NCBI RefSeq assembly: GCF_047555085.1
Contig: NZ_CP180230.1
Span: forward strand, 570,001 to 602,000
DNA from: Candidatus Saccharimonadota bacterium
GTDB lineage: Archaea; Nanohalarchaeota; Nanosalinia; Nanosalinales; Nanosalinaceae
DNA: 32,000 nucleotides
Direction of reading: 5' to 3'
The notes under the pieces are model-generated. The model was not told where the DNA came from and searched no databases. It saw only the letters and a program-made list of their open reading frames with translations. Positions 4,758 to 24,378 of this stretch are shown in pieces. The translations under genes and the position numbers were made by a program. How positions within the stretch are numbered: position 1 is the stretch's first letter; each line of letters opens with the position of its first letter.

Positions 4758-4776
4758 AACTTCTATCGGAAGCTAT

Positions 4777-5271
4777 TCACAGTTTTTTCCTGTACCGGTA
4801 ACGATAGTATCTTCTGAAAACATTTTGCAGAGGCCCTGGAAGCCTTGGATATATTCCTCTGATCTTTCTGTAGAAACGATTCCTCAGATATTTTTTCTCC
4901 GGCATCTCTAGACAGGTAACATTGTTTCTCCGCCACATCTCCGCCACGAAATTTTTGTCATCGACCGCGAAACTTATCTCCAGGCCTTCATCCCGTAACT
5001 TTTCCAGTATATCTTTCTTGAATTTTTCATCCGGGATGCCGAAGCTGTCTTCAGGCCTCATGTAAAGTCTATCGAAATCGATGTCAGAGGCCTCCAGCTT
5101 CTTGACTGTCTCGTCTCGCACCTCTTCTGCTCGTGCAGTCAGGAGGACTGTTAAAGTATCGTCCTTCTCCTGCATGTTCTCCAGGAGATTGCGTGCAGAT
5201 TCGATGAAGTCATCATCGTCGTCGTCAGATCCTACAAGAGTGTCATCGATATCGAAGATGGCGGCCTTCAT
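4777..5271 (-). CDS. HAD-superfamily phosphatase (resembles the PNKP-type 3'-phosphatase/nucleotidase subgroup) with an Arg/Tyr-rich basic tail
   Basis: MKAAIFDIDDTL carries the DxDxT motif I, LLTAR is motif II-like, and a later K...DD follows. I prefer the ATG at 5271 over the track's GTG at 5289. The C-terminus reads RNRFYRKIRGIYPRLPGPLQNVFRRYYRYRYRKKL. Confidence 0.65.
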   Translation of the reverse strand: MKAAIFDIDDTLVGSDDDDDDFIESARNLLENMQEKDDTLTVLLTARAEEVRDETVKKLEASDIDFDRLYMRPEDSFGIPDEKFKKDILEKLRDEGLEISFAVDDKNFVAEMWRRNNVTCLEMPEKKYLRNRFYRKIRGIYPRLPGPLQNVFRRYYRYRYRKKL

Positions 5272-5329
5272 CTGGAGAAGATTTCGCACTCAGTAAATAA
5301 AAAAGGAGAAGAAAAAGTTACAGAGGAAT

Positions 5330-6124
5330 TTACCAGGGAGCAAAGCCTGGATCGACCATGCGTTCCTCTCTGTCTATAGAATCGATCTTCTGAACGTCTT
5401 CGTCGTCAAGCTCGAGATCAAGGGCCTCGTAGTTATCTCTAATGTGTTCCTCACTACTGGCTTTAGGAATAGCTACTACTCCATCTTTCTGCATCAGCCA
5501 GGCAAGACTTACCTGCGCCTCTGAGACATCATGCTTTTCTGCGACTTCCTGAATCTCTGGAACGTCAAATACCTCTCCACGTGCCAGAGGACTGTACGCT
5601 ACAAGAGTTACATCGTGTTCACGGCACTTTTCCAGAAGTTCCTCCTGCTGAAGCAACGGATGCATCTCGACCTGATTCGCGATGATGTGCTTCGGAGCTA
5701 TCTCCATCGCTTTATCCAGCTGTTCCGGAGTGAAGTTGCTGACACCGATGTTCCTGATTTCTCCACTGTGAACAAGCTCCTTGAAGGCCTTCAGAGTTTC
5801 CTGCGGACTGTAGTCTCCGGCAGGCCAGTGAACATACATCAGGTCAACGTAGTCGACTCCAAGCTTCTCTACAGATTCTTTTGTAGAGGCCTTCACGTTT
5901 TCCGGAGCCAGTTGATCGATCCAGACCTTCGAGGCCAGGAAGTAATCCTCTCTATCGACATCCGCGTCTTCGAGGCCTTTTCCGACGTCTTCCTCATTTT
6001 CGTATGCCTGAGCAGTATCTATATGCCTGTAGCCCATGTTGAGAGCTGTTTCCACGGATTTTGCGCATTCTTCAGGATCTGTGTTCTGCCAGGTTCCAAG
6101 GCCTAGCTTCGGTATATCAGTCAT
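5330..6124 (-). CDS. Aldo/keto reductase (2,5-diketo-D-gluconate reductase-like)
   Basis: LGLGTWQ, GYRHIDTAQAYENEEDVG, LMYVHWP and IGVSNF are classical AKR signatures. Confidence 0.9.
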   Translation of the reverse strand: MTDIPKLGLGTWQNTDPEECAKSVETALNMGYRHIDTAQAYENEEDVGKGLEDADVDREDYFLASKVWIDQLAPENVKASTKESVEKLGVDYVDLMYVHWPAGDYSPQETLKAFKELVHSGEIRNIGVSNFTPEQLDKAMEIAPKHIIANQVEMHPLLQQEELLEKCREHDVTLVAYSPLARGEVFDVPEIQEVAEKHDVSEAQVSLAWLMQKDGVVAIPKASSEEHIRDNYEALDLELDDEDVQKIDSIDREERMVDPGFAPW

Positions 6125-6232: not shown

Positions 6233-8008
6233 ATGGTACAGGAAAGAGAGGAAATAGAAGACAGTTACAAATGGAATCTTGAGGAAATGTTTTCAAGCGA
6301 TGAGGAATGGAGCGAAACTTTCGAACAGGCCTCTGAGGAAATCGAAAAATTTGATGAGTATAAAGGAAAAGTTACTGAGCCCGGCGAAACTTTACTTGAA
6401 GTCCTGAAGCTGCGTGAAAAAGTCAAGCGGAAGATCAAGAATCTGGCTTCGTACGCTCAGATGCGTTACGATCAGGATACACGGAATCAGGAGTATCAGG
6501 CGCTTAAATCCAAGGCCTCTACACTCTCATCCGAGTTTTCTTCTGCTACAAGCTTTATCGAGCCGGAGATCCAGGACGCTGGAGAGGAACGTATACAGGA
6601 ATTGATCGAGGAAGAGGAAGATCTGGAAGTCTACAGGCATTACTTCGATGATGTTCTGCGTTTCAGGCCTCACACACTGTCTAAAAGCGAGGAAAAGCTT
6701 GTTTCCTCTCTGGGTGATGTCCTGGATGCACCGGACGATGCGTACAAGATGCTGATGAACGCTGATATGACGTTCCCTGAAGTCCAGACGCCTGAAGGCG
6801 AAAAAGTCGAGATCACTCAGAGCAACTTCACAAAGTTCCTGAAGAACAGCGATAGAGAATTCAGAAAGGAAGTATACGAAAAGTTCTACGACGAGATCGA
6901 TACAGTGAGGAATACTGTAACTTCCACTTTCCAGAAGAACGTGAAGCGTAACGTCAAGATGGCGGATATACGTGACTATGATTCGGCGCGAGAGGCCTCT
7001 CTGTTCAGTTCAAATATTCCTGTAGATGTGTACGATAATCTTGTGGATTCTGTAGAGGCCAATCTCGATGCTTTACACAGACATCTCGAGTTGAAGGAGT
7101 CTGTGCTTGACGTCGATCAGTTAGGAATGGAAGATGTCTACATGCCGGTCGCTACTTCAGATGAGCCGGAGATAGATTTCGAGGAAGCGAAGGAGTACGT
7201 GTTAAAGGCTGTCGAGCCGCTGGGCGAGAAGTATCAGGAGGCGATGCGTGAAGGTCTTGAAAGCGGATGGGTTGATGTCTACGAGAATCGTGGAAAGCGT
7301 TCAGGAGCTTACTCCGGTGGAACATATGATTCGATGCCGTACATCCTCCTCAATTACCAGGACGATGTCAACTCTATGTATACACTTGCCCATGAACTCG
7401 GCCACTCCATGCATTCATACTTCTCCACAGGCAATCAGCCGTACGTATACGGCGGCTACAAGATCTTCGTCGCAGAAGTCGCATCGACAGTTAACGAGGC
7501 CTTGTTGACGAGATACCTGATGGAGAATGCGCCTGAAGAAGTCAGGAAACATGCTTTGAGCCATTACCTGGAAAATTTCAGGAACACGCTGTTCAGACAG
7601 ACGATGTTCGCAGACTTCGAACAACGTGTGCATGAGGAAGTTGAGGATGGCGAAGCACTGACCTCGAAGAAACTGAATGAGATGTATGGAGGCCTGAAGG
7701 AGGATTACTACAGGCCTGCAGATGTGGATGAGCGTATCGAGAGGGAGTGGATGCGTATCCCGCATTTCTACTACAACTTCTACGTCTACCAGTACGCTAC
7801 AGGTATCTCTGCTGCAGAGACGCTTGTAGAAAAGATCAAAGATGAAGGGCCTGAAGACTACATCGAATTCCTGAAGACAGGATCATCCAAGTATCCACTG
7901 GAGGCCCTGAAAGTTGCAGGTGTAGACATGGAGGATCCTGAAGCAGTAGAGAAAGCTATAGAACATTACAGGGAACACATAGAGAAAGGAGAGGAAATGT
8001 TCGAATAG
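6233..8008 (+). CDS. pepF: Oligoendopeptidase F (M3B family metallopeptidase)
   Basis: 591 aa with the HExxH zinc site in TLAHELGHSMH. Overall length and layout are typical of PepF. Confidence 0.9.
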   Translation: MVQEREEIEDSYKWNLEEMFSSDEEWSETFEQASEEIEKFDEYKGKVTEPGETLLEVLKLREKVKRKIKNLASYAQMRYDQDTRNQEYQALKSKASTLSSEFSSATSFIEPEIQDAGEERIQELIEEEEDLEVYRHYFDDVLRFRPHTLSKSEEKLVSSLGDVLDAPDDAYKMLMNADMTFPEVQTPEGEKVEITQSNFTKFLKNSDREFRKEVYEKFYDEIDTVRNTVTSTFQKNVKRNVKMADIRDYDSAREASLFSSNIPVDVYDNLVDSVEANLDALHRHLELKESVLDVDQLGMEDVYMPVATSDEPEIDFEEAKEYVLKAVEPLGEKYQEAMREGLESGWVDVYENRGKRSGAYSGGTYDSMPYILLNYQDDVNSMYTLAHELGHSMHSYFSTGNQPYVYGGYKIFVAEVASTVNEALLTRYLMENAPEEVRKHALSHYLENFRNTLFRQTMFADFEQRVHEEVEDGEALTSKKLNEMYGGLKEDYYRPADVDERIEREWMRIPHFYYNFYVYQYATGISAAETLVEKIKDEGPEDYIEFLKTGSSKYPLEALKVAGVDMEDPEAVEKAIEHYREHIEKGEEMFE

Positions 8009-8045
8009 CGGCCTGAAGTATGAGGGATTTTTTCTCCCCTATTTT

Positions 8046-8243
8046 TTATCCATATCTTCTGTAGACTTTGATCAGTACCCAGACAAAGCAGTAGAACACT
8101 GTGAGCTTGAAGCCTACATCTATACTTGAATATCCGAACGCCGGGGCAAAAATCACCAGGATCCATGAGGCAGCGATAGCCGCAATACCTGTCGCCCCGA
8201 GAACTTTTCTCTGCTTCTTTGAAAGACTATCCAGAAAACCCAT
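8046..8243 (-). CDS. Small two-TM membrane protein
   Basis: 65 aa with two hydrophobic helices. Its start lies 7 nt after the stop of the upstream coiled-coil gene, so the two are probably co-transcribed. Confidence 0.5.
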   Translation of the reverse strand: MGFLDSLSKKQRKVLGATGIAAIAASWILVIFAPAFGYSSIDVGFKLTVFYCFVWVLIKVYRRYG

Positions 8244-8250
8244 GAACTAA

Positions 8251-9510
8251 TCAGGCCTCCGTGGATTTTTCAAACCAGGCCTTCAGAGTTACATCAACAC
8301 CGAGAGTCTTCTCCATGAATATCTCCAGTGTACGCAGCTCCTCCAGTCTGTCCTCCTCCAGATCCTCTAACTTTTCCTCCAGGCCATGAAGACGCTCCTG
8401 CTTGTCCTCAAGATCTCTTTCAAGGCCTTCAATCTTCTTCACAAGACTTTCACGCTTATCAGTTATATCCATTTCATCAAGCTCATCTTTCTTCGCCTCT
8501 ATCTCATCTTCGTACTCTCTTATCTCATTTTTATCGGCATCAAAGCCTTCAAAGTTCTCAACAGCATCTTCAAATTTTTCCAGCTGTCTATCATCAAGCA
8601 AGTCCTCTTCACGGATCTTTTCACAGGCCTTCTCCAGTTCAGAGGAAGGATTCTCTACAGAATCAAATTCTTTATCACGTATCCTCTTCAGAACACCAAG
8701 ATCGCCGTCGAAATCCGTACCAGAGTTCTCTACACTGTAGATAAGCTTTTTCAGGCCTCTATCAAGATTTGAAGCTCGACGGGAGATAGACTTCCGAACA
8801 TCGTCCCTCCTGGACTCGAGATAATTTATGCTGTCCTCAAGATCCTCCTTCCTATCCCAGGCCTCTGTACTCTCCAGCTCCTCCAGCTCATCTTTCCTAT
8901 CATCTAAATTCTCTTCTACATCTTCTATTTCATTTTTAACTGACTCAATTTTCTCTTCAGTTTTATCTATATCTTCAGAGAATCTTTCTATTCTTGATAG
9001 GGCCTTTTCAATCTGTTCAAGCTGTTTTATCGCCTGATACTCTTCTTTGATAAAATCTGACATCTCATCCCTGTGCTCAACGACAGCACTGAATTTTTCT
9101 GAGAGCACTCCAGAACTCTGCTCCACTCTCTTCATCACAGCACCTTCTTTGCGTGATACATCGTTTAACTCTTCCACAAAATCATCGAGATCTTCAAAAT
9201 GTTCTTCTAACTCTTCAGAGGCCTCAAAGTTGTCTATGAGCTTCTTGCGTGATTCATAGAAGTTTTGTGCTACATCTTCAACGGCCTGTATATCTGCCGC
9301 GTCCTCATAATCCGTTAGTTCATCCAGGCTTTCATCAAGCTCCTGAAGAAGATCATCTGTCCTTGAAACTAGCTGATCTGATCTTTCACGAGCTTTCTCG
9401 ATTTCCTGTTGCCTTCTTCTCCTGAAAGTTTTCTCTGCTTCGTCTAAATCTACTTCTAGTTCTTCTTCCTCCTTGGAAAAAATATTTTCCAGCTTGTCGA
9501 TCAGGCCCAT
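8251..9510 (-). CDS. Acidic coiled-coil protein (about 419 aa), function unknown
   Basis: Long Glu/Asp/Lys-rich heptad-like sequence. I prefer the ATG at 9510 (MGLIDKLENIF...) because the track's GTG at 9555 lies inside the TATA-like tttaaat element. Confidence 0.6.
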   Translation of the reverse strand: MGLIDKLENIFSKEEEELEVDLDEAEKTFRRRRQQEIEKARERSDQLVSRTDDLLQELDESLDELTDYEDAADIQAVEDVAQNFYESRKKLIDNFEASEELEEHFEDLDDFVEELNDVSRKEGAVMKRVEQSSGVLSEKFSAVVEHRDEMSDFIKEEYQAIKQLEQIEKALSRIERFSEDIDKTEEKIESVKNEIEDVEENLDDRKDELEELESTEAWDRKEDLEDSINYLESRRDDVRKSISRRASNLDRGLKKLIYSVENSGTDFDGDLGVLKRIRDKEFDSVENPSSELEKACEKIREEDLLDDRQLEKFEDAVENFEGFDADKNEIREYEDEIEAKKDELDEMDITDKRESLVKKIEGLERDLEDKQERLHGLEEKLEDLEEDRLEELRTLEIFMEKTLGVDVTLKAWFEKSTEA

Positions 9511-9561
9511 GACATCTCTGGATAATTTTTGCACTCCCAGATTTAAACAGGTCACCTAATA

Positions 9562-16103: not shown

Positions 16104-16265
16104 TTATCCTGCGAACTGGGAGTTCTTCTTTCTGAGGTCGCTGTATCCGCATTTTCTGCAGCTTGTCTTCTCTGGATTGTCTGTCTTGTTCTTTGCGTTG
16201 CAGCGTCTGCAGATGTATACGTTTTCGAATACTCTTTGTTCAGCTTCCTCAAATCTCTGTGCCAT
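16104..16265 (-). CDS. rpl40e: 50S ribosomal protein L40e (53 aa); missed by the ORF track
   Basis: My translation: MAQRFEEAEQRVFENVYICRRCNAKNKTDNPEKTSCRKCGYSDLRKKNSQFAG. It has the CxxC...CxxC zinc ribbon and an N-terminus typical of archaeal L40e. An AGAGGTG Shine-Dalgarno lies about 10 nt upstream. Confidence 0.85.
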   Translation of the reverse strand: MAQRFEEAEQRVFENVYICRRCNAKNKTDNPEKTSCRKCGYSDLRKKNSQFAG

Positions 16266-16320: not shown

Positions 16321-17673
16321 TTATCTGTCGTAGTTAGAATTTGGCAGATAAATATCGAATGATGGTGGTTTCAGGCCTGGCAGTATCTCGATGTCATGGC
16401 CGCTGGTATCTTTCCTGTCTCTCGAGTTGAATCCTTCAGGTACTGCACCCGGCTTTCTTGCTCCGAACACGTTGCCGTCTTTATCTACTACTTCATCTCC
16501 TCCGAGCTTGTCATATCTTACAAAGATTCTGGTAGGGCCTCCATCCTTGCTTACGTTGAACTCTCCTATTGTTTTAACGATTTTTGTAGGTGAAAGGAGG
16601 CCTTCGGCTTCAAGAGCGTTACATAGCTCTCCAACGATTTTTTCTGTAGTTTTCCTATTTTGATTTACATTATCGCTTGGCGAGTCATCTTGTTTTGGAT
16701 ATATGGTGGCAAGTTTTACAGCTGTCTCCTTTCCCTTGTTCTTCAGGCTTTCAGCGTTTCTTCCAAACTTGTTTTCACTTTCCATACCCTTAAGAACAGG
16801 CATAACTGCTTCTGCCACACGCAGAACTTCGTCCTCGTTTTCTGGATTGACAGCTACGTGAATCTTCCATCCCTGTGAAGCTGTTTTCCCGCTGTGCACC
16901 ATCCAGTTGAACCTTTTACCGCCGCTTTTGTGGACCCAGGCCCAGCGCCCCTTCCAGATGTCTGCACTGTTTTTACTCCAGTCAGGCTCAGTAGTAGGAT
17001 CTTTAGCCACTAACTGCCATGGCTCTGAAAGACTTGAACCTGTATCATCTGAACCATCTGAAGAATCATCAGAGGCCTCCGGAGCGTATTTTTTACTCAG
17101 AATGTTGCTGACTCTCTCCGCACGTTTATGGAGTTCTGTTTCAATTTCATCTTTTTCCAGACCGTGCTCATCCAAAATATCAGTTAAAATGGATTCAAGC
17201 TGCTGAACTTTCTTCCCTTTCCTGTCAAGCTCTTCTATCTTCCTCCCGAGCTCGTTAATCTGTTTCTCCTCCTTTCCTGCGATTTTTCCGAGGCCTGAGT
17301 CCTGAAGGCGTGAGGCGATACTTTCCAGCTCTCTGTCCTCTTCGGAGGCCTTGGATACATCCCGCTCAAGTTTATTTCTCAGATCTGATAGTCTTCTGGC
17401 ATTCCGGATGGAGGCCTCCAGCTGTTTCCCTATCTCCTGCTTTCTGGCGTTCTGTATCTCGGTGAGATAATCTTTCAGGACATCGGCAGAGCTATCAGTT
17501 AAAGAGATTTTAAGACCGTCTATACCGAAATCCACTGAGTCTGGATCTACTTCAAGGCCTTGCTTACTGATTATTACTCTTGCAAGTGAGAATCTTTCAG
17601 AGGCCTCTAAATCACGTTTAGTCGAAGTTATATCGCTTGCCAGGGCCTCCACTGCATCGCTGTAAGAAGTCAT
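16321..17673 (-). CDS. Cluster gene E: N-terminal coiled-coil adaptor plus a C-terminal domain with phospho-Ser/Thr-lyase-like (OspF/SpvC/HopA1/LanL-lyase) motifs
   Basis: 450 aa. The ATG immediately follows the stop of the JAMM gene (GGAGGA-TAA-ATG). Residues 1-190 align without gaps to the JAMM protein N-terminus (about 31% identity over residues 101-170). The C-terminal part has QGWK270-I-H272-V, NK302F and KLATIYP. The coding call is confident; the functional call is about 0.4. Confidence 0.8.
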   Translation of the reverse strand: MTSYSDAVEALASDITSTKRDLEASERFSLARVIISKQGLEVDPDSVDFGIDGLKISLTDSSADVLKDYLTEIQNARKQEIGKQLEASIRNARRLSDLRNKLERDVSKASEEDRELESIASRLQDSGLGKIAGKEEKQINELGRKIEELDRKGKKVQQLESILTDILDEHGLEKDEIETELHKRAERVSNILSKKYAPEASDDSSDGSDDTGSSLSEPWQLVAKDPTTEPDWSKNSADIWKGRWAWVHKSGGKRFNWMVHSGKTASQGWKIHVAVNPENEDEVLRVAEAVMPVLKGMESENKFGRNAESLKNKGKETAVKLATIYPKQDDSPSDNVNQNRKTTEKIVGELCNALEAEGLLSPTKIVKTIGEFNVSKDGGPTRIFVRYDKLGGDEVVDKDGNVFGARKPGAVPEGFNSRDRKDTSGHDIEILPGLKPPSFDIYLPNSNYDR

Positions 17674-18813
17674 TTATCCTCCACCACTGAACTCTGTTGG
17701 TTCTGGAAGTTTTTCGAAGCTGTATCCTGATGCTATGTTGCTCCATTCCTCGTCAAGTTCTTCACGCCATTCGCTGAACTCTCCGGAACTTTTTCTGTCG
17801 AAAGTGTTCAGTTCCGGATCTCTGGAGTTGCCTTTAAGCAGTACTTTTTTCGGAGTTACAAGCATTCCTATGTATCCTTCTCCCTGTTCCTTGAAATTTT
17901 CTATATCGCCTTCCGACCAGCTTTCAGCGTATTTTGGACCGTAACGATGTATTGTGCCAACCGAGTGCGTATGGAATTCTACAAGTCTGTACTTGGCATA
18001 ATTTTCTATCAGTTGGTTGGCTGCTCTCAGTCGGGCCTCATCCGGGGAAACTGACTGCTCATCCCCTACACCGGTCTTCAGAGTTTTCAGTACTGTCCAG
18101 TCTTTCCCTTCTTTCCTGCATATAAGGAGGCCTGTGATCTCCTCATTGTATGTATTAGCTGCGTGACGCAGATTCTGGAGGAACTCTTTATCGATGAATA
18201 TCTTTGTGTTTCCGCTTTTTCTTTCAGAGGCCTCTCCTGCATTTTCAAGTACAACGCCTATGACGTTCTTTCGATGCTTCAGTGATTCCACTATTCTGTG
18301 GCTTTCAGCGTAGCTTTCAAGATTTTCGTATTCGCTGAGCAATGTCTCAAGTTTTTCCTGCCTTTCCATAAGGCCTGAAAGCCTGTTCCCCATCTCCTGC
18401 ATCTGCTCTCCCTCATAATCGACTTCTGCAAGAAGATGTGCATCTTTTAATCGCCTTGCGATATTTTCAAGTTCTTTTCCTTCTCCTACAGCTTTCTCAA
18501 GCTCTGATACAAGCTGATCAGAAAGTGAGAAAAGCATGCTGTACTCGTTTTTCTTGTTTGGTGATGTATGCGTTGAATCCAGTTTTTTCGCCCATTCCAG
18601 ATTCTCGTCTATGGCCTGACTGTACTGCTGCAGAAGAGTTCTCCCGTCGTCGCTCAGATGTATCGTGCAGGCCTCGCAGATATTTTCCACTTCATCGATA
18701 TCGGAGTTATTTGAAAGCAGAAGGCCTAGAGCTTCTTCTCTGTCTCTTCCGTCGGGGACTTCCAGGCGTTCACTCAGTACGGCTTTGAACTGGCTGTAGT
18801 AGTTCTCACTCAT
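17674..18813 (-). CDS. Cluster gene D: coiled-coil adaptor plus a JAMM/MPN+ (JAB) metalloprotease domain
   Basis: NEEITGLL (Glu225/226) ... EFH282TH284S...S301EGD304 gives E...HxH...SxxD. The ATG at 18813 (or GTG at 18816) overlaps the stop of gene C (ATGAGTGA) and is preceded by a GGGGGAG Shine-Dalgarno-like run. Confidence 0.8.
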   Translation of the reverse strand: MSENYYSQFKAVLSERLEVPDGRDREEALGLLLSNNSDIDEVENICEACTIHLSDDGRTLLQQYSQAIDENLEWAKKLDSTHTSPNKKNEYSMLFSLSDQLVSELEKAVGEGKELENIARRLKDAHLLAEVDYEGEQMQEMGNRLSGLMERQEKLETLLSEYENLESYAESHRIVESLKHRKNVIGVVLENAGEASERKSGNTKIFIDKEFLQNLRHAANTYNEEITGLLICRKEGKDWTVLKTLKTGVGDEQSVSPDEARLRAANQLIENYAKYRLVEFHTHSVGTIHRYGPKYAESWSEGDIENFKEQGEGYIGMLVTPKKVLLKGNSRDPELNTFDRKSSGEFSEWREELDEEWSNIASGYSFEKLPEPTEFSGGG

Positions 18814-19630
18814 CACTCTCCCCCAGTAGATTGATTATACGTCTTATCCTGTCTATGTCTTCTTCCAGTTCATCTATTTCCTCGTCCATCAGCTCATTGA
18901 TCTCGTCTTCAGCATCTGATAGAATTCTTATAACTTGTTCAAGTTCTCTGGCAGTTGTCTCGGCTTCTTCATCGGCCTCTTCTTCCTCGCCTTCATCTAT
19001 TTCATCTTCTTCACGGGCCTCTTCTTCCTCGATCTGCTCTTCTTCGGTTTCTGCCCTGTCCAGTGCTTCTTTAGTGGCCTCTATACCTTCCACCATCTGT
19101 CCGACACCGCTTGAAGTGGCCTTAACTGATGCTCCGGTAATGTAAGCTGATCCTGCTATAGTTCCTCCGACTCCTCCGATAAGTATGAACAGTGTTCCTG
19201 CAAGGATCATGAATGTGAATGCGAGAAGAATCATTGACTGCCAGCCTCTTATCAGGCCTGTGAATCCTGCTGATCCAACTACGGTAAGCGTTATCAGTAG
19301 TGTAAGTACCGCAAGTACGTTTCTGCTATCATCGTCTGTAAGGCCTACAGCATCCTGGAACGGCGTGTCCATGTTGCTGTCTTCGAGGTTCTTATCGAGG
19401 TACTGGAGCGCTATCTTGAAGATTACGTATGCGGATACCCACATAACGGAGAATGTTGCGAGTATGCCAAGCACGTGGTATGGTTCCGAGACTCTTATTC
19501 CGAATACCTGTGATAGAAGTTCTGGAAGAGATGCAGATCCATACCCGTAGTATCCTCCGTTAGTTATCTGTGCAGATGTGGATGGTATGAAGGCTGTAAA
19601 CAGTAAAACCAGTTTTCTCCAGCGCCCCAT
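18806..19630 (-). CDS. Cluster gene C: signal peptide, 3 TM helices, then an acidic coiled-coil tail (short paralogue of gene A)
   Basis: The N-terminal 160 aa are collinear with gene A: signal peptide ending TSAQITNGG, helices LGILATFSVMWVSAYVIF, VLAVLTLLITLTVVG and the identical GLIRGWQSMILLAFTFMI. The tail then carries ARELEQVIRIL. Confidence 0.8.
   Translation of the reverse strand: MGRWRKLVLLFTAFIPSTSAQITNGGYYGYGSASLPELLSQVFGIRVSEPYHVLGILATFSVMWVSAYVIFKIALQYLDKNLEDSNMDTPFQDAVGLTDDDSRNVLAVLTLLITLTVVGSAGFTGLIRGWQSMILLAFTFMILAGTLFILIGGVGGTIAGSAYITGASVKATSSGVGQMVEGIEATKEALDRAETEEEQIEEEEAREEDEIDEGEEEEADEEAETTARELEQVIRILSDAEDEINELMDEEIDELEEDIDRIRRIINLLGESDE
19206..19258. repeat. 53-nt block nearly identical (2 mismatches) to 22904-22956; encodes GLIRGWQSMILLAFTFMI in gene C
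   Basis: Compared directly: atcatgaatgtgaatgcgagaagaatcattgactgccagcctcttatcaggcc versus atcatgaacgtgaatgcgagaaggatcattgactgccagcctcttatcaggcc. Confidence 0.85.
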
Positions 19631-19653
19631 GCCGTAAAATTATCGGTTCGTGG

Positions 19654-19661
19654 TTATAAGA
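19654..19661 (-). promoter_or_regulatory. TATA-like box (minus strand tcttataa) at -24..-31 of the gene C ATG
   Basis: Read directly. A T-run (ttcttcttttttg on the minus strand) lies further upstream, just downstream of the gene B stop. This suggests C-D-E is its own transcription unit. Confidence 0.4.
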
Positions 19662-19724
19662 GTTTACAAGAAAACGGCGTTTTCAATCAAAAAAGAAGAA
19701 TAAGAAGGGAGAAGTCAGGATGGC

Positions 19725-21110
19725 TCAGGGCATCCTGGCCATGCTTTCTATCTCTTCCCTGAACTCCTCGACAGCATCGTATTCTTCGCCAGTAGCATCT
19801 TCTACGTGAGACTGGACTCTCTCCGTCAGCGAATGGATGCCATAATCGTCCTCTGCAGTGATATCATCAAGGCCAAGGTGATCGTACAGACCTACAACTT
19901 CATCAAGACGTGTACCAACACGTACATCTTCCTCATCAAGCCTGTCTGTTATTGCTTCAGCTGCCTGTGCGTAATCCGTTACTGCATCCTCCAGGTAGTC
20001 GATTCTTGTCAAAGCACGCTTTGCAACTGCATTGGCTGCTCTGCTGATATCCTGTACTACGCCCTGCTGGTCCTGTGAAAGCTCCGGTGAGCCTGGAAGT
20101 GTTTCTGGAACAGATTTAGCTTCATAAACGTCGCGCATGTTCCCAAGGCTGGATAGTGTGATGAAAAGATCCTCTATGCTCTCTGCCTGATCCTCAACAT
20201 ACTCTATCACATCGGTAGAGAACTCAACATGAACCTCTTCAAGTTCATCCATCCTGTCCGTTCTCTCTGAGACAAGATCCTGTTTCTCATCCTTGAGTGT
20301 AGAACGCTGTTCCTGAGCATCAGATCTAACTTCCTGTTTCTCCTCTTCAAGCTCTTCACGGCGCTCCTCATACTCGGATTCAGCCTCTTCCACAGTAGTT
20401 CTGAAGCTTCCCGAGATATCATCCCATTCCTGCTGCCACATATCATTCGTCTCATCGTAGGACGACTCATCAAGATCAGAAGTGGACATGCCAGAAACCT
20501 GAGACTTCAGATCTCCAACTTCTTCCTCCTTCTCCCGTTCAGCCTGCTCAATACGCTCATCTCTTCTTTCCTCAGCCTGCTCAATCTCCTGCTCAATCTC
20601 ATCAACACGCTCCCGCTCCCTGTCGGAAACATTGCTTATCAGGCCTGTAAACTGCTGGACCTGTGATGAGAGAGTATCAACAGCAGCAGAGTTGGACTGG
20701 AGATATTCCATCAAGCTCTGATCCTCATCAGCAAACTCGATGCGCTCTCCATCCTCCTCAAGATACTTTAAATCAACCAGCTCCCACTCATCATCTACTT
20801 CTGCAAGACCTGTCTCACGGGCATCCGCAAGGAACCTGTTAACAGGCTGATTCTCATCACCAGCTCTGCTTTCAAGCCTGCTCTTCAGATCACGGAACTG
20901 TATTTCTCTCTGTCTCTGTTTCCCAAGCGCATTGCCGTACTCCGACTCAGCACTCTGGGCCTCTCTAGCAAGTTCATCTTCATCAAGAACATTTGCATTA
21001 GCATGAGTTCCAGCACGTCTGTTCGCAGGATTTCCATTAACCTCAGCCTCTCTCCCTTCAAGTTCAAAACCAAATTCTTCCTCTACAGTCTCCTCTCCAT
21101 TATCATCCAT
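19725..21110 (-). CDS. Cluster gene B: highly acidic soluble coiled-coil protein (461 aa), unknown function
   Basis: Long ORF with no TM helix and extended Glu/Asp/Arg-rich helical repeats. A GGTGA Shine-Dalgarno lies 7 nt upstream of the ATG. Confidence 0.7.
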   Translation of the reverse strand: MDDNGEETVEEEFGFELEGREAEVNGNPANRRAGTHANANVLDEDELAREAQSAESEYGNALGKQRQREIQFRDLKSRLESRAGDENQPVNRFLADARETGLAEVDDEWELVDLKYLEEDGERIEFADEDQSLMEYLQSNSAAVDTLSSQVQQFTGLISNVSDRERERVDEIEQEIEQAEERRDERIEQAEREKEEEVGDLKSQVSGMSTSDLDESSYDETNDMWQQEWDDISGSFRTTVEEAESEYEERREELEEEKQEVRSDAQEQRSTLKDEKQDLVSERTDRMDELEEVHVEFSTDVIEYVEDQAESIEDLFITLSSLGNMRDVYEAKSVPETLPGSPELSQDQQGVVQDISRAANAVAKRALTRIDYLEDAVTDYAQAAEAITDRLDEEDVRVGTRLDEVVGLYDHLGLDDITAEDDYGIHSLTERVQSHVEDATGEEYDAVEEFREEIESMARMP

Positions 21111-21231
21111 ATTGTAATCACCAGGGTATAGTAAAGCACGTGAGAATTATATACTTAATCCTGGCCTTAGATTTGAACAGAATCATTTAAGACCACTGAG
21201 AAAAATTATGATCGCTGCTAGGACGTCTTCA

Positions 21232-23313
21232 TTAACTCTCAAACGTGTAAAAAACTTCTTCAATTCTCTCTCTTTCAATATTCCTGAAAACGTCTCCTGT
21301 TGCCGGGCAGAAGCACACGCCAATACTCTCCGTGTCAACGAACACACAAGGAAAAACACCGCCGCCTACACGATAAAAACCGAGGCTGACAAACGCATCA
21401 TCAATGAAATCCCTGACAGGCCTCCATGCACCAACTTTGGAGCTGTTAAGCTCATCTACAAGCCTGTGATCATATATAGGCCTGAAGTTATGGATAAGGA
21501 ATCCAAGATAAACCGCATTCACAAGATCAGAATCAAAACGCAGAGAATCAAACGCTTCGGACAGCAAAATATTCTTCCTGTCCCTATCAGGAATTTTTGA
21601 AGAATTTATATCGCTATTTATGGACTCGAAGACATTAACAAGCTCTTCACCAACCTTGCTTTTCCTGCTTATGTCTCTGGACTTGATAAAATTCCTTATG
21701 TCTCCTTCAAATCTTTTGATAAGGCCTCTGGATTTCTTATCAAATTCAAAAGCTTTTTTGCCAGTATGGCTTCCTGCCGACATACCGATATCTACTTTCA
21801 AAGTTGTATTGCTTTTTCCGGAAGGAAAAATAGTTAGTCCAGGCCTTATCGAAGCTTCAGCTTCTGCTTCGCTGTCAAAACTTACAAATTTGGCTGTACT
21901 GATGCCAGTACTGCTTGAGTCGATGATCTGTTCTGTCAGTATTTTTCTTACATCTATTGCGTTTCTTAGGGCGTCAAGGCCTCCTATATGGGATTCAAGC
22001 TCCTTGATGTGCTCCTCTAAATCTTTCAGTCTTTCGTCCATATCTCTTATGCGCTCAAGTTCTTTCTTCAGCTCCTTCAGTTGATTTATCTCGTACTCGT
22101 ATTCTTCTGCAATTTTTCTCCTGTTTCTGGATGACTCCAGATGATCTATTAGCTCTTGAAGATCTTTTTCCTCATCCACAGCATGGCCTATCTCGGCCTC
22201 AAGGCCTTCGATTAAATCCTGTAACTCGCTGTAAATCCTGTTGTTGGCCTCCAAGTCAGATACCTGATTTTTCAATCTTTCAAGTTCATTCAGGTACTGC
22301 TCCAGCAAGTCCAGTTCCTCTTCCGTGACCGGCAAAGCTCCTGCAGAATTTATTATATCTCTGAAACGTGCTTCAGCTTCACCTGAGGCCTCGTTAAGTG
22401 AAAGAAGCTCTTCCAGTTCATCCCTACTTATTTCAAGTCTCTCTACTACATTCCTGAGATTTTCGAATCCTTCATGTCCCTCCTGTACTCCAAGAGCTCT
22501 CAGTAACTCTTTCAAGGCCTGCAAATCATTTTTCAGATTTTCAAGCTCTGTGCTGATACTTCCCTCTATCCTGTTCTCTATATCCTCGATCAACTGTATG
22601 ACTCTTTCAAGCCTGTTAGCTATATCCTCTAACTCTCTTTCTACTTCACTCGCTCCACGACTGCCTGTATCTGTTGAACTGTCAGTATCGCCTTCCTCTT
22701 TTCTTCGTGCATCATCCTCTTCCCTGTCGATGCTTTCCTCAAGTTCCTCGACTTCATCCTCTTCCCCTCTTATCTTCTCAACCTCTTCTGAGGCCTCTTT
22801 CACTCCTCTGGCAACTGATTTAGCGGATTTACCGAGTAGATATCCGCCGCCTCCCAGTATAAAGCCTGTGCCTCCTATAAGTACGAACATCAGGCCTGCT
22901 ATAATCATGAACGTGAATGCGAGAAGGATCATTGACTGCCAGCCTCTTATCAGGCCGTAAAACGCTCCTGTGCCGATGACGCTGAGAGTTACAAGTAGAG
23001 TGAGTACCGCCAGAATATTCCTGTCCTCGCTCCTGGCAATTCCAAATGCGTCAGCAAATCCGTTGCGTCCGTCAAGGCCTTCATCCAGCTTCCCTATAGC
23101 TATCTTGAAGATTAAATACGCGGACAGCCACATCAGGCCGAAAGTAGCAAGCAGTCCTATCAGTTCTGTAGGATTTCCGATGTTGATCCCCAGTAGTTCT
23201 GATAGAAGAGCAGGTATAGACGCTGTGCTTCCGAAGCCTCCTCCGGTTATCTGCGCAGAGGCCTCAGACAAAAGAAGCGAAAACACAAGTACTAGCTGGG
23301 AAAGCCTCTTCAT
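21232..23313 (-). CDS. Cluster gene A: signal peptide, 3 TM helices, about 280 aa of coiled coil, and an unknown C-terminal globular domain of about 230 aa
   Basis: 693 aa. The signal peptide ends EASAQITGGG and the TM helices are paralogous to gene C. RELEDIANRL sits at aa 226-235. The C-terminal domain (STGISTAKFVSF...FYRVGGGVFPCVFVDTESIGVCFCPATGD...) matches nothing I recognise. Confidence 0.8.
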   Translation of the reverse strand: MKRLSQLVLVFSLLLSEASAQITGGGFGSTASIPALLSELLGINIGNPTELIGLLATFGLMWLSAYLIFKIAIGKLDEGLDGRNGFADAFGIARSEDRNILAVLTLLVTLSVIGTGAFYGLIRGWQSMILLAFTFMIIAGLMFVLIGGTGFILGGGGYLLGKSAKSVARGVKEASEEVEKIRGEEDEVEELEESIDREEDDARRKEEGDTDSSTDTGSRGASEVERELEDIANRLERVIQLIEDIENRIEGSISTELENLKNDLQALKELLRALGVQEGHEGFENLRNVVERLEISRDELEELLSLNEASGEAEARFRDIINSAGALPVTEEELDLLEQYLNELERLKNQVSDLEANNRIYSELQDLIEGLEAEIGHAVDEEKDLQELIDHLESSRNRRKIAEEYEYEINQLKELKKELERIRDMDERLKDLEEHIKELESHIGGLDALRNAIDVRKILTEQIIDSSSTGISTAKFVSFDSEAEAEASIRPGLTIFPSGKSNTTLKVDIGMSAGSHTGKKAFEFDKKSRGLIKRFEGDIRNFIKSRDISRKSKVGEELVNVFESINSDINSSKIPDRDRKNILLSEAFDSLRFDSDLVNAVYLGFLIHNFRPIYDHRLVDELNSSKVGAWRPVRDFIDDAFVSLGFYRVGGGVFPCVFVDTESIGVCFCPATGDVFRNIERERIEEVFYTFES
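22904..22956. repeat. Partner of the 53-nt conserved block at 19206-19258 (gene A copy)
   Basis: See 19206-19258. The flanking paralogous sequence is much more diverged at the nucleotide level. Confidence 0.85.
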
Positions 23314-23344: not shown

Positions 23345-23555
23345 GATGGAAGAACACCTCAAAAATTCATCTCCCACGTTCAGCCCACGCACAGTTTAAA
23401 AATATGGCAGCTACAATTTCTGTCTGTGGTTCACAAATGAAAGGTGAATACGATCATCTCTCCAGAAGGAGAGAAAGCGGAAGAAAAGTTACAGAATAGT
23501 TCTCAAAATCTTCTAGATAGTTCAAGCGATTCCTGCAGCTCTTCACCAATCAAAG

Positions 23556-23804
23556 GTGAAGGCGTTCACGGAAAGCTTCTCAACAACTCTTGACTCAAAA
23601 GGCCGTGTAACTTTACCTGCCAGTGTCAGAAGGAAGCTAGGCCTCGAGAAAGGAGACAAAGTGAAGATCTCCGCAAAAAATCCCCGCATCCGGAGTAGAG
23701 AGGCCTCATGTATTGAGGAGGCTCTGAGCTTTCTGCAGGAATTTGATTCCGTGGAAACTTTCTCCTTCAACGGGGAAAGAGTTGAGGTGGTTCTAAGTGG
23801 ATAG
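23556..23804 (+). CDS. AbrB/SpoVT/MazE-family DNA-binding protein (antitoxin-like)
   Basis: DSKGRVTLPASVRRKLGLEKGDKVKI is a typical swapped-hairpin AbrB motif. GTG start, with no in-frame ATG available upstream. Confidence 0.75.
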   Translation: MKAFTESFSTTLDSKGRVTLPASVRRKLGLEKGDKVKISAKNPRIRSREASCIEEALSFLQEFDSVETFSFNGERVEVVLSG

Positions 23805-24378
23805 CCTCGAGTTCACGGATCTAAGTTACGAACCCGGTGAGTACTCTCTAAGCGACGAAAAGATGGAATCAGCTGTGATAGGTATGTACCAGAGAGTGTT
23901 CAATAACTCTCCTTACGGGGAGAACTTTGACTACGAACTGGCTGAAGATATTGTCCAGGGAATCCGGGGAAAGGATACGGAAGGCCTTCTTGCTGTTCAG
24001 GACGGTATGCCTGTCGGATTTGCATGGGGAGAAGTTCTGGAGCCGGGGGATAGGGAAATTTTTCCGGATGAAATCCCTGGAGAATTCTTCGATGGAAGTA
24101 GTTACTACTTCGCTGAGCTCGGTGTACTACCGGATTACCGTGATCAGGGCCTCGGTAAAGAGCTAAAGAGGCGGGAGCTGGAGAAAGTTAAAAACCGTGA
24201 AGATATCGATAAAGGCCTGATGCGGACATCTGTGGAGGAGAACGATAAGAAGCTGGGTCTTGACAGCGATCTGGGATTCGAGGCCTTGGAGCCTGATGGA
24301 GAACCTGTAACAGAGGAGGTTGAATCCGTGGGAGTTGAAGGAAGTGATCTCCGTGGCTACTTCTGGAGGCCTGTATGA
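23797..24378 (+). CDS. GNAT-family N-acetyltransferase; start uncertain (GTG at 23797 overlapping the AbrB stop, or ATG at 23863)
   Basis: AELGVLPDYRDQGLGKELKRREL matches the acetyl-CoA-binding motif A (R/Q-x-x-G-x-G/A). Confidence 0.7.
   Translation: MDSLEFTDLSYEPGEYSLSDEKMESAVIGMYQRVFNNSPYGENFDYELAEDIVQGIRGKDTEGLLAVQDGMPVGFAWGEVLEPGDREIFPDEIPGEFFDGSSYYFAELGVLPDYRDQGLGKELKRRELEKVKNREDIDKGLMRTSVEENDKKLGLDSDLGFEALEPDGEPVTEEVESVGVEGSDLRGYFWRPV

Follow-up and report, generated by a model that had tools for sequence, protein, structure and literature searches.

A candidate membrane-tethered cassette with exchangeable, predicted modification-erasing enzyme heads in Nanohaloarchaeota

Introduction

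Several described systems resemble parts of the gene cluster reported here, which occupies positions 16321-23313 of a 32,000-nucleotide stretch of nanohaloarchaeal DNA (contig NZ_CP180230.1 of assembly GCF_047555085.1, positions 570,001 to 602,000 of the forward strand; this whole stretch is called the window below). Polymorphic toxins, such as the LXG toxins of type VII secretion systems, combine a constant helical N-terminal module with variable heads that turn over through recombination at the junction, and JAB, zinc-peptidase and transglutaminase-like domains are among the heads in use (PMC3482391). Archaeal JAMM isopeptidases (HvJAMM1, PfJAMM1 and the Caldiarchaeum Rpn11 homologue) and Cap3 share the MPN fold with its Glu, His-x-His, Ser and Asp residues. 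The phospho-Ser/Thr lyases OspF, SpvC and HopAI1 and the lyase domain of LanL carry a Lys-x-His motif, a base Lys and a Tyr; the catalytic residues of SpvC are K104, H106, K136 and Y158, and phosphate is bound by R148, R213 and R220 (PMC4159009, PMC2843593). The OspF-type family was reported to be exclusively bacterial, and its members outside lanthipeptide synthetases are known as effectors (PMC4159009). Long cytoplasmic helical tails of membrane proteins that position enzymes are found in Zorya ZorA and in eukaryotic A-kinase anchoring proteins (AKAPs). Finally, DPANN-specific coiled-coil proteins (CCPs) with weak nucleoporin-like matches were described in type-IV-pilus-like loci of DPANN archaea (Hamm et al. 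2024, PMC11291902).

The cluster of the window borrows from several of these descriptions and, as a system, appears to be categorically new, its function being deduced from sequence, from one good structure model and from comparative genomics. Two soluble proteins with a common N-terminal module (N-module) end in different predicted enzyme heads, and in related loci these heads seem to have been exchanged by recombination just after the N-module, only within one of two gene positions (slots), as the alignments described below show. We regard it as somewhat more likely than not that the cluster is a lineage-specific, membrane-tethered, polymorphic cassette that erases protein modifications and is used in conflict.

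Results and discussion

Organization of the gene cluster

The cluster had been described in a first-pass annotation of the window as five consecutive minus-strand genes, and open reading frames (ORFs) of the sizes given there were recovered for all five. Gene A (21232-23313, 693 aa) encodes a long anchor composed of a signal peptide, three transmembrane (TM) helices, an acidic coiled coil, an N-module and a C-terminal head; gene B (19725-21110, 461 aa) encodes a soluble, helical, hyper-acidic protein; and gene C (18806-19630, 274 aa) encodes a short anchor with a membrane module, an acidic linker and a conserved C-terminal helix. Gene D (17674-18816, 380 aa), in slot 1, combines a D-type N-module with a JAMM/MPN+ head, and gene E (16321-17673, 450 aa), in slot 2, combines an E-type N-module with an OspF/LanL-type lyase head. 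The length of D is 380 aa when counted from a GTG codon and 379 aa from the ATG at position 18813, which is the start chosen by NCBI.

The translational coupling of C, D and E that had been proposed agrees with both junctions exactly. The C/D junction reads GTGATGAGTGA, where the start of D overlaps the stop of C and the ATG of D lies 8 nt inside the end of C, and the D/E junction reads GGAGGATAAATG, where the start of E directly abuts the stop of D. The E protein is 100% identical to ACK3SF_03475 of Candidatus Nanosalina sp. VS9-1, so that the putative DPANN-type organism of the first-pass annotation is a nanohaloarchaeon. Additionally, Pfam scans of the other ORFs of the window revealed no ubiquitin-like protein (Ubl), E1/E2, kinase or ATPase partner for the cluster, in agreement with what had been noted before.

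Distribution and the two-slot cassette

In order to follow the N-module, its profile was searched exhaustively against 1.84 billion representative proteins. A threshold of E<=1e-3 was passed by 45 proteins, 38 of which also passed E<=1e-10. These 38 carry the module at their N-terminus; of the seven weaker matches, five (P0027, P0071, P0073, P0074 and P0076) have it in an internal position, and their N-termini contain a signal peptide or TM segments. Every identifiable source of N-module proteins belongs to the Nanohaloarchaeota. The metagenome scan was performed with the membrane module as the query, the N-module alignment being too diverse for a pattern scan; this module was found in 13 metagenome loci and in three GTDB species representatives, all of them Nanohaloarchaeota, including Nanosalina sp. 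J07AB43. Local hidden Markov models (HMMs) were then built for every module and head and used to scan the window and 30 loci, which correspond to about 17 distinct loci. The search for synteny in relatives that had been suggested with the first-pass annotation was thereby carried out, and the cluster is syntenic in about 17 independent related loci, far above chance.

The order of the core is always C, slot 1, which may be empty, and slot 2; C, the invariant first gene, and slot 2 are always present. The core is usually followed by the gene for ribosomal protein L40e, and upstream of it AbrB-like and GNAT genes and hisS are usually found in divergent orientation. JAMM heads occupy slot 1 in the window and in loci L003, L007, L008, L009 and L021, HExxH heads of type 1 in L005, L016, L019 and L020, and an HExxH head of type 2 in L013, and the slot is empty in L001, L011 and L028. 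Slot 2 carries lyase heads in the window, L001, L005, L007, L019 and L020, a PPP-type metallophosphatase in L003, L008, L009, L013, L016 and L021, and a transglutaminase-like head in L011 and L028. The head types of the two slots combine freely: JAMM with lyase, JAMM with PPP, HExxH with lyase, HExxH with PPP, an empty slot with lyase and an empty slot with the transglutaminase-like head were all observed. Genes A and B are present together in seven loci or absent together, and neither was seen alone where the contig allowed this to be judged.

Among the 38 N-module representatives, the heads were classified as PPP (15), lyase (7), JAMM (6), HExxH (8), transglutaminase-like (1) and fragment (1). 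The PPP heads carry the GDxHG / GDxxDRG / GNH[DE] signature and score up to 44 bits against Pfam Metallophos; in NCBIfam they come closest to Pnkp phosphatase, PrpE and ApaH. About half of them are non-canonical, with SD[IV]E in place of GDxHG and GDLIQHG in place of GDxxDRG (P0009, P0043, P0047, P0048, P0052 and P0065), and these variant heads may have altered or lost activity. The HExxH heads were identified by motif only, and the transglutaminase-like head lies just below the threshold (22.6 vs 23 bits). An irreversible erasure of modifications, as had been proposed from the window, is not a conserved property, since 15 of the 23 slot-2 representatives carry a PPP phosphatase and the JAMM slot is often filled by HExxH.

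Exchange of the heads

The most direct view of the exchange is given by pairs of close relatives. The N-modules of P0002 (lyase) and P0040 (PPP) are 95% identical over residues 1-191, and their heads have no similarity. The N-modules of P0016 (JAMM) and P0023 (type-1 HExxH) are 83% identical, and those of the lyase and PPP pairs P0068/P0065 and P0054/P0052 are 78% identical each. None of the 18 closest different-head pairs listed, with an identity of at least 51%, joins a slot-1 head to a slot-2 head. Moreover, the two parts of the protein also differ in conservation among JAMM proteins: compared with D of the window, P0013 shows 77% identity in its N-module and 46% in its head, and P0012 shows 61% and 70%, respectively. 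The constant-module, variable-head logic that had been read from D and E is thus seen directly in the swaps. As the exchange takes place within a slot, the alternative heads of that slot are suggested to be functionally equivalent, and the occurrence of the lyase in the same slot as PPP argues for a phosphoprotein substrate.

In J07AB43 (L010, 6158-7825), a 555-aa chimera joins an E-type N-module to the N-terminal half of a lyase head and to an entire JAMM head; an orphan N-module fragment of 142 aa (7829-8257) comes next. The chimera and the fragment look like a recombination or deletion scar, or like an assembly artefact.

Head swapping, as it appears from these alignments, is a hallmark of polymorphic effector and toxin evolution; six head types occur here on one module family, and N-modules that are 95%, 83% and 78% identical carry unrelated heads. 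Other features of those systems were looked for and not found: D and E carry no secretion or trafficking domain, and the roughly 17 loci contain no immunity genes, no extra small genes and no orphan head cassettes. The cassette also differs from polymorphic toxins in that its heads would be erasers rather than nucleases or deaminases, its N-module is also found inside a membrane protein, and a secretion ATPase is missing. Polymorphic toxin systems are, furthermore, generally absent from archaea, and the present cassette is archaeal.

The D head

The JAMM/MPN+ metalloprotease that had been recognized in D corresponds to residues 200-380 (17677-18219, minus strand), as delimited by Foldseek and residue conservation. 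Its match to Pfam Prok-JAB is marginal (E 0.014), single-sequence searches of the PDB with D and E returned only noise, and the profile of the D family gave a marginal Rpn11-like match (E 1.9). The assignment is carried by an AlphaFold model with a pLDDT of 82, and of about 90 in the head. All 35 PDB structures matched by this model in Foldseek at E<=1e-3 are JAMM/MPN proteins, including CSN5, the Caldiarchaeum Rpn11 homologue, Cap3 and PfJAMM1:SAMP2 (TM 0.72, rmsd 3.3 A). The motif residues E226, H282-T-H284-S285 and S301-E-G-D304 are conserved in 15 of the 16 aligned family members. The D head is therefore taken, from the model and the intact catalytic motif, to have the JAMM/MPN+ fold, and isopeptidase activity is predicted.

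The fold and the Glu, His-x-His, Ser and Asp residues are shared with HvJAMM1, PfJAMM1, the Caldiarchaeum Rpn11 homologue and Cap3. Unlike archaeal JAMM isopeptidases and Cap3, the head is fused to an N-module and is exchangeable in situ with HExxH domains. It further departs from HvJAMM1, PfJAMM1 and Cap3 in its marginal Prok-JAB score, in a variant motif whose spacer from His-x-His to Ser-x-x-Asp is 16 residues long vs the canonical 7, and in the lack of Ubl, E1 or E2 genes nearby. With regard to the known Ubl systems (SAMP-UbaA, Bil and the Cap2/Cap3 part of the antiphage system CBASS), no Ubl, E1, E2 or CD-NTase gene lies beside D within the 32-kb window, none was present near the JAMM gene in the existing Pfam annotations of the genes called in related loci, and D was not matched by PADLOC.

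The E head

The similarity of the E head to phospho-Ser/Thr lyases, also noted in the first-pass annotation, was borne out by a match to Pfam RamC_N (PF25816) above the cut-off (38.7 bits vs 27, E 9.5e-10), which covers profile positions 12-101 of 191, that is, the N-terminal half of the profile. The head comprises residues 231-450 (16324-16983, minus strand), as judged from RamC_N, the LanKC alignment and residue invariance. The profile of the E family matches the lyase domain of solved LanKC enzymes (residues 49-124 of LanKC 8sao). The residues of interest are K270-x-H272, K302, K320, Y325, R382, R386 and Y387. The tetrad K270, H272, K302 and Y325 is invariant in 13 of 13 lyase-type heads; K320, R382 and Y387 are also invariant, and position 386 is Arg in nine and Thr in four of the 13. 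Counted from K270, the spacing in E is +2, +32, +55, +112 and +116, as compared with +2, +32, +54, +109 and +116 in SpvC, R382 and R386 being matched to the SpvC arginines by spacing only. The E head may thus be assigned to the OspF/LanL-type lyase domains, and phospho-lyase activity is predicted.

In its Lys-x-His motif, base Lys and Tyr and in a spacing nearly identical to that of SpvC, the E head resembles OspF, SpvC, HopAI1 and the LanL lyase domain. It differs from these lyases in that it is borne by a helical N-module and not by a kinase-cyclase or a type III secretion signal, and in that it is archaeal, lies beside a membrane anchor and is exchangeable in situ with a PPP phosphatase.

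The homology of the RamC_N lyase domain to class III/IV lanthipeptide synthetases raises the possibility of a lanthipeptide-like maturation of a peptide made on the ribosome and modified after translation (RiPP), in which the lyase would dehydrate a phosphorylated precursor, the product of the adjacent peptidase gene would trim the leader and the membrane proteins would export the product. However, E scores far below the cut-offs of NCBIfam LanL (28.4 bits vs 650) and LanKC (27.1 vs 575), with only the lyase region aligned, and kinase and cyclase domains were not found in its 450 aa. A precursor peptide gene was also missing, the only conserved small ORF downstream being that of ribosomal protein L40e. 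Most relatives, moreover, have a PPP phosphatase in place of the lyase, and such an enzyme is unable to form dehydro-residues; the anchors, with three TM helices each, show none of the features of a transporter. Such a pathway is very improbable and close to refuted.

In one relative (P0042, residues ~195-235), a CxxC...CxxC zinc-ribbon-like insert lies between the N-module and the lyase head.

The N-module and its fusions to the anchor

The homology of the N-terminal ~190 aa of D and E that had been claimed is well supported, as hhalign aligned the two N-modules over 162 columns with a probability of 98.6% (E 8e-16). The module, which is helical, corresponds to residues 1-196 of D (18229-18816, minus strand), as delimited by the secondary structure of the D model and homology to the E module, and to residues 1-199 of E (17077-17673, minus strand), as delimited by hhalign and the local HMM. 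In the D model it consists of a small N-terminal subdomain followed by a long helical hairpin. No known trafficking domain was matched by it in Pfam and NCBIfam searches.

A third copy was detected within A, at residues ~294-467 (21913-22434, minus strand; placed by hhalign at ~312-467, probability 98.1%, E 1.4e-13), and the exhaustive search likewise placed the module internally in the A-family member P0027 (residues 294-476). A had been described before as an anchor, a coiled coil and a head; these parts stand, and the middle of the protein is not just coiled coil, as it also holds this copy. The layout of A (anchor, acidic coiled coil, N-module and a head of ~225 aa) is that of a C-type protein fused to a D/E-type protein. 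Other fusions were also found: P0073 joins anchor, N-module and lyase head in one chain, P0039 in L018 joins an anchor to an HExxH-type region without the N-module, and in the relative P0038 the C-terminal 196 aa of B are fused to an A-type anchor (44% identity, E 1e-46). By the usual gene-fusion argument, these four cases suggest that the heads and B function while physically bound to the anchor, and we infer from them that the N-module may hold the heads on the cytoplasmic tail of the anchor.

Slot-2 proteins of 734-1071 aa (P0008, P0040, P0045, P0051, P0052, P0054, P0065 and P0068) contain an extra helical insert of 250-500 aa between the N-module and the head, and in some of them the insert partly matches the N-module profile a second time.

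The N-module of A gave weak matches to Nup54/57 and Nup49. Compared by description only, this feature and the coiled coil resemble the DPANN CCPs. Unlike the CCP loci, the cluster of the window has no pilus genes, and CCPs have not been reported with enzyme heads. A further likeness to the CCP and type-IV-pilus loci is limited to a single distant case, the relative P0076 (L014, 8001-16446), which has a signal peptide, a TM region and an internal N-module. It lies ~3 kb from an intein-containing T2SSE ATPase, beside multi-TM small ORFs and coiled-coil ORFs with weak FlaC/ArlX matches. In another distant relative, L015, no partner genes were found; a 348-aa ORF that follows two membrane-module genes there (4774-5820) contains the sequence ILEVNSWPGY, which is ATP-grasp-like by eye, and has no Pfam match.

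The membrane anchors and protein B

A and C are 44% identical over 254 aa (E 4e-59), which confirms that they are paralogues. Both have a Sec-type signal peptide ending in ASA|Q and followed by three hydrophobic segments; the first ~30 residues of the mature proteins are nearly free of Lys and Arg, and stretches rich in these residues follow TM1 and TM3. This distribution of Lys and Arg around the TM segments points to an N-out/C-in topology in which the acidic coiled coil is cytoplasmic, and the occurrence of the same head types on signal-less D/E-type proteins and behind the anchor points to the same topology. The signal peptide, three TM helices and cytoplasmic coiled coil attributed earlier to A and C agree with these signals. 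In A, the membrane module comprises residues 1-173 (22795-23313, minus strand). The invariant features of the module in the family alignments are the mature N-terminus Q-I-T, a GWQ loop and a Gly-rich TM3, all of them present in A, and no credible family was matched by it in Pfam or NCBIfam.

The C-terminal head of A (residues ~468-693, about 225 aa; 21235-21912, minus strand) is an alpha/beta domain of unassigned fold. Its model has a pLDDT of 62, and of about 80 in the core, and Foldseek found nothing below E 0.2 in the PDB, which is in line with the domain of no recognized fold reported before. A weak, non-significant lean of the Foldseek results to papain/transglutaminase-like folds (LapG, ubiquitin-specific proteases and PLpro) was observed, and the alignment of the family contains no invariant Cys or His.

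No hydrophobic segment is present in B, D or E, and D and E also lack a signal peptide. B, with an isoelectric point of 4.08 and 29% Asp and Glu, is the soluble, hyper-acidic protein that had been predicted; it matches no known family and was never found without A, the two occurring side by side in each locus that allowed both to be judged.

Proposed role of the cassette

In the mechanism that we propose, C and its paralogue A would be exported by the Sec pathway and inserted N-out/C-in by their three TM helices, exposing an invariant peptide of ~30 residues outside and the coiled coil inside. D and E would stay in the cytoplasm, where the N-module would tether each head to the tail of C, as it would do in cis in A. 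The slot-1 enzyme would cut an (iso)peptide-linked tag or peptide, and the slot-2 enzyme would remove the phosphate of phospho-Ser/Thr, by beta-elimination in VS9-1 and by hydrolysis in most relatives. The substrates would be proteins near the inner face of the membrane, and the erased marks, judging from family membership, would be Ubl conjugates and phospho-Ser/Thr. The turnover of heads by recombination favours a role in conflict over housekeeping; it would reflect antagonism against host proteins at the contact site or against viral proteins, and a host-interaction or defence role is a conjecture.

The first-pass annotation had already suggested a membrane scaffold that presents or delivers the enzymes. 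Its enzyme classes, its module logic and the docking, for which the fusions speak, stand. No support was found for delivery: neither D nor E carries an export signal, and the predicted topology puts the coiled coil and the heads in the symbiont's own cytoplasm. Irreversible erasure was given up above. The statement that the cluster does not match SAMP, Bil, CBASS-Cap3 or lanthipeptide loci is upheld by the comparisons made in the preceding sections: the cluster fits none of the named systems tested, and its heads are new members of the known JAMM/MPN+ and OspF/LanL lyase superfamilies. In its logic it would resemble a polymorphic effector system carried by a membrane scaffold. No description of these families was found in the literature on Nanohaloarchaeota that was consulted, including comparative-genomics studies.

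Several observations weigh against a membrane-tethered conflict cassette. The association of C with D and E rests on gene fusions and is therefore indirect. The absence of an export signal from D and E, together with that of any ATPase or translocon gene from the cluster, makes access to host proteins hard to account for. In all relatives the cluster is fixed between the housekeeping genes hisS and L40e, and, unlike typical conflict islands, the loci are devoid of immunity genes. As to the enzymes, the Pnkp/PrpE/ApaH clade nearest to the PPP heads also acts on nucleotides and RNA ends, so that slot 2 is perhaps not directed at proteins. About half of these heads have non-canonical metal motifs, and the HExxH and transglutaminase-like heads were identified at the motif level or near the threshold only.

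A more specific version of the same explanation, which we consider doubtful, is a host-directed effector platform at the contact between symbiont and host, in which the invariant external peptide would touch or insert into the host membrane, the erasers would reach host proteins through a cytoplasmic bridge and, by stripping SAMP-type tags and phospho-marks, they would rewire host proteostasis. The source is a nanohaloarchaeon, and its cultivated relatives need haloarchaeal hosts (PMC6642349, PMC11291902). The heads are polymorphic, and the anchor has an invariant mature N-terminus; as mentioned in the Introduction, OspF-type lyases that do not belong to lanthipeptide synthetases are known as effectors (PMC4159009), and toxins that lack immunity genes have been proposed to act on distant targets (PMC3482391). 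In Haloferax, moreover, a sampylated protein is also phosphorylated before its proteasomal degradation (PMC4895103), so that a JAMM enzyme and a phospho-eraser would hit both marks. On the other hand, no delivery machinery is encoded in the cluster or in the window, the heads are predicted to lie in the cytoplasm of the symbiont itself, and the interaction loci published for Nanohaloarchaeota are different, consisting of a type IV pilus and coiled-coil proteins (PMC11291902). In its furthest form the cassette would amount to the first effector system described for an archaeal parasite, a contact-site platform presenting recombining erasers, such as desampylase-like JAMM enzymes, zinc peptidases, phospho-lyases and PPP phosphatases, to haloarchaeal host proteins, by which Ubl- and phospho-dependent proteostasis and signalling of the host would be disarmed, an archaeal counterpart of OspF-like type III effectors with a new delivery principle; we think this unlikely.

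The fixed position of the locus, between hisS/GNAT/AbrB and L40e/tRNA-Thr in all relatives, would be better accounted for by a hub directed at the symbiont itself, that is, an AKAP-like scaffold that would bring a deconjugating peptidase, together with a phosphatase or lyase, to membrane-proximal proteins of the symbiont, for example those of transport, division or the envelope. Also in its favour are that C and slot 2 are always there, that C, D and E are tightly coupled in translation, and that neither immunity genes nor a secretion signal on D or E were found. This reading, to which we give about the same low credence as to the first effector system of an archaeal parasite, is contradicted by the chemically different heads that near-identical N-modules bear in close relatives and by the coming and going of slot 1 and of the A and B pair; the alternation of JAMM with HExxH, or of lyase with phosphatase and transglutaminase-like heads, would be unexpected for a housekeeping regulator. 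The likeness to AKAPs, as to ZorA, is a functional analogy only, and the cluster has neither a sequence or domain relationship to them nor a MotB-like partner or a kinase.

The combination of a membrane protein, coiled coils and polymorphic effectors is also what an antiviral defence system might contain, the anchor acting as a Zorya-like membrane sensor that recruits or activates effector enzymes upon infection. DPANN archaea are poor in CRISPR and restriction-modification systems and enriched in compact and candidate systems (PMC12988326), and PADLOC gave weak matches to ZorA, JetC and LmuB. These matches are, however, confined to coiled-coil regions and consistent with compositional noise; those to ZorA (E 0.007-0.3) fall only in the coiled coils of B and C, and D has none. 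The cluster contains no MotB/ZorB-like partner, nuclease, NADase or ATPase, and it sits at a fixed locus and not in a variable defence island. Searches of phage and plasmid collections returned no matches to the cluster, and PHROGs matches were noise only, the weak PADLOC and PHROGs matches as a whole being confined to coiled-coil and TM regions. Nothing in these searches points to a known defence system or to an origin from a virus or a plasmid. We therefore consider a defence function of this kind quite unlikely, clearly more so than the host-directed and self-directed alternatives.

Almost nothing is known about the molecules that DPANN archaea, whose hosts are other archaea, use on them, and the cluster provides a defined and testable set of candidates, made up of a new membrane module, a new adaptor module and heads of predictable chemistry. 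One of these heads is a predicted archaeal OspF/LanL-type lyase domain, from a family that was reported in 2014 as exclusively bacterial. The exchange in place of lyase and phosphatase, and of JAMM and HExxH, amounts to a natural experiment that indicates equivalent activities, and it suggests that polymorphic effectors have evolved in a domain of life from which systems of this kind were believed to be almost missing. If the target were the symbiont itself, the cassette would still represent a new way of organizing de-modifying enzymes at a prokaryotic membrane.

Flanking genes

The rest of the window has a housekeeping character, with genes for a histidyl-tRNA synthetase, an Obg-like GTPase, endonuclease V, a P-type ATPase, an M3 peptidase, an alcohol dehydrogenase and two tRNAs. 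Beside the P-type ATPase gene, a 434-aa ORF (8251-9555, minus strand) encodes a helical, uncharacterised protein with only a weak, coiled-coil-type Pfam match (COG3_N) and no match to the N-module or membrane-module HMMs.

Divergently from A, an AbrB/MazE-like gene (23556-23804, plus strand, 82 aa) overlaps by 8 nt with a gene for a GNAT acetyltransferase (23797-24378, plus strand, 193 aa). The two genes resemble an AbrB-GNAT toxin-antitoxin pair and adjoin the cluster in most related loci; the pair is a possible regulator of the cluster, or a toxin-antitoxin pair. In the intergenic region between A and the AbrB-like gene, the palindrome TTCAC-N9-GTGAA occurs twice (23430-23448 and 23542-23560; 0.03 occurrences expected in the window), and the second copy overlaps the start codon of the AbrB-like gene. 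The palindrome was considered as a conserved operator and rejected, because it is absent from 30 of 30 related loci and is therefore strain-specific.

On the other side of the cluster, about 55 nt downstream of E, a 53-aa ORF (16104-16265, minus strand) was considered as a precursor peptide and rejected, as it encodes ribosomal protein L40e (NCBIfam NF003161, 57 bits vs a cut-off of 54). In 14 related loci, slot 2 is followed by the L40e gene. Eukaryotes produce L40e fused to ubiquitin, and its constant position next to a JAMM-containing cassette is, in this regard, a curious coincidence.

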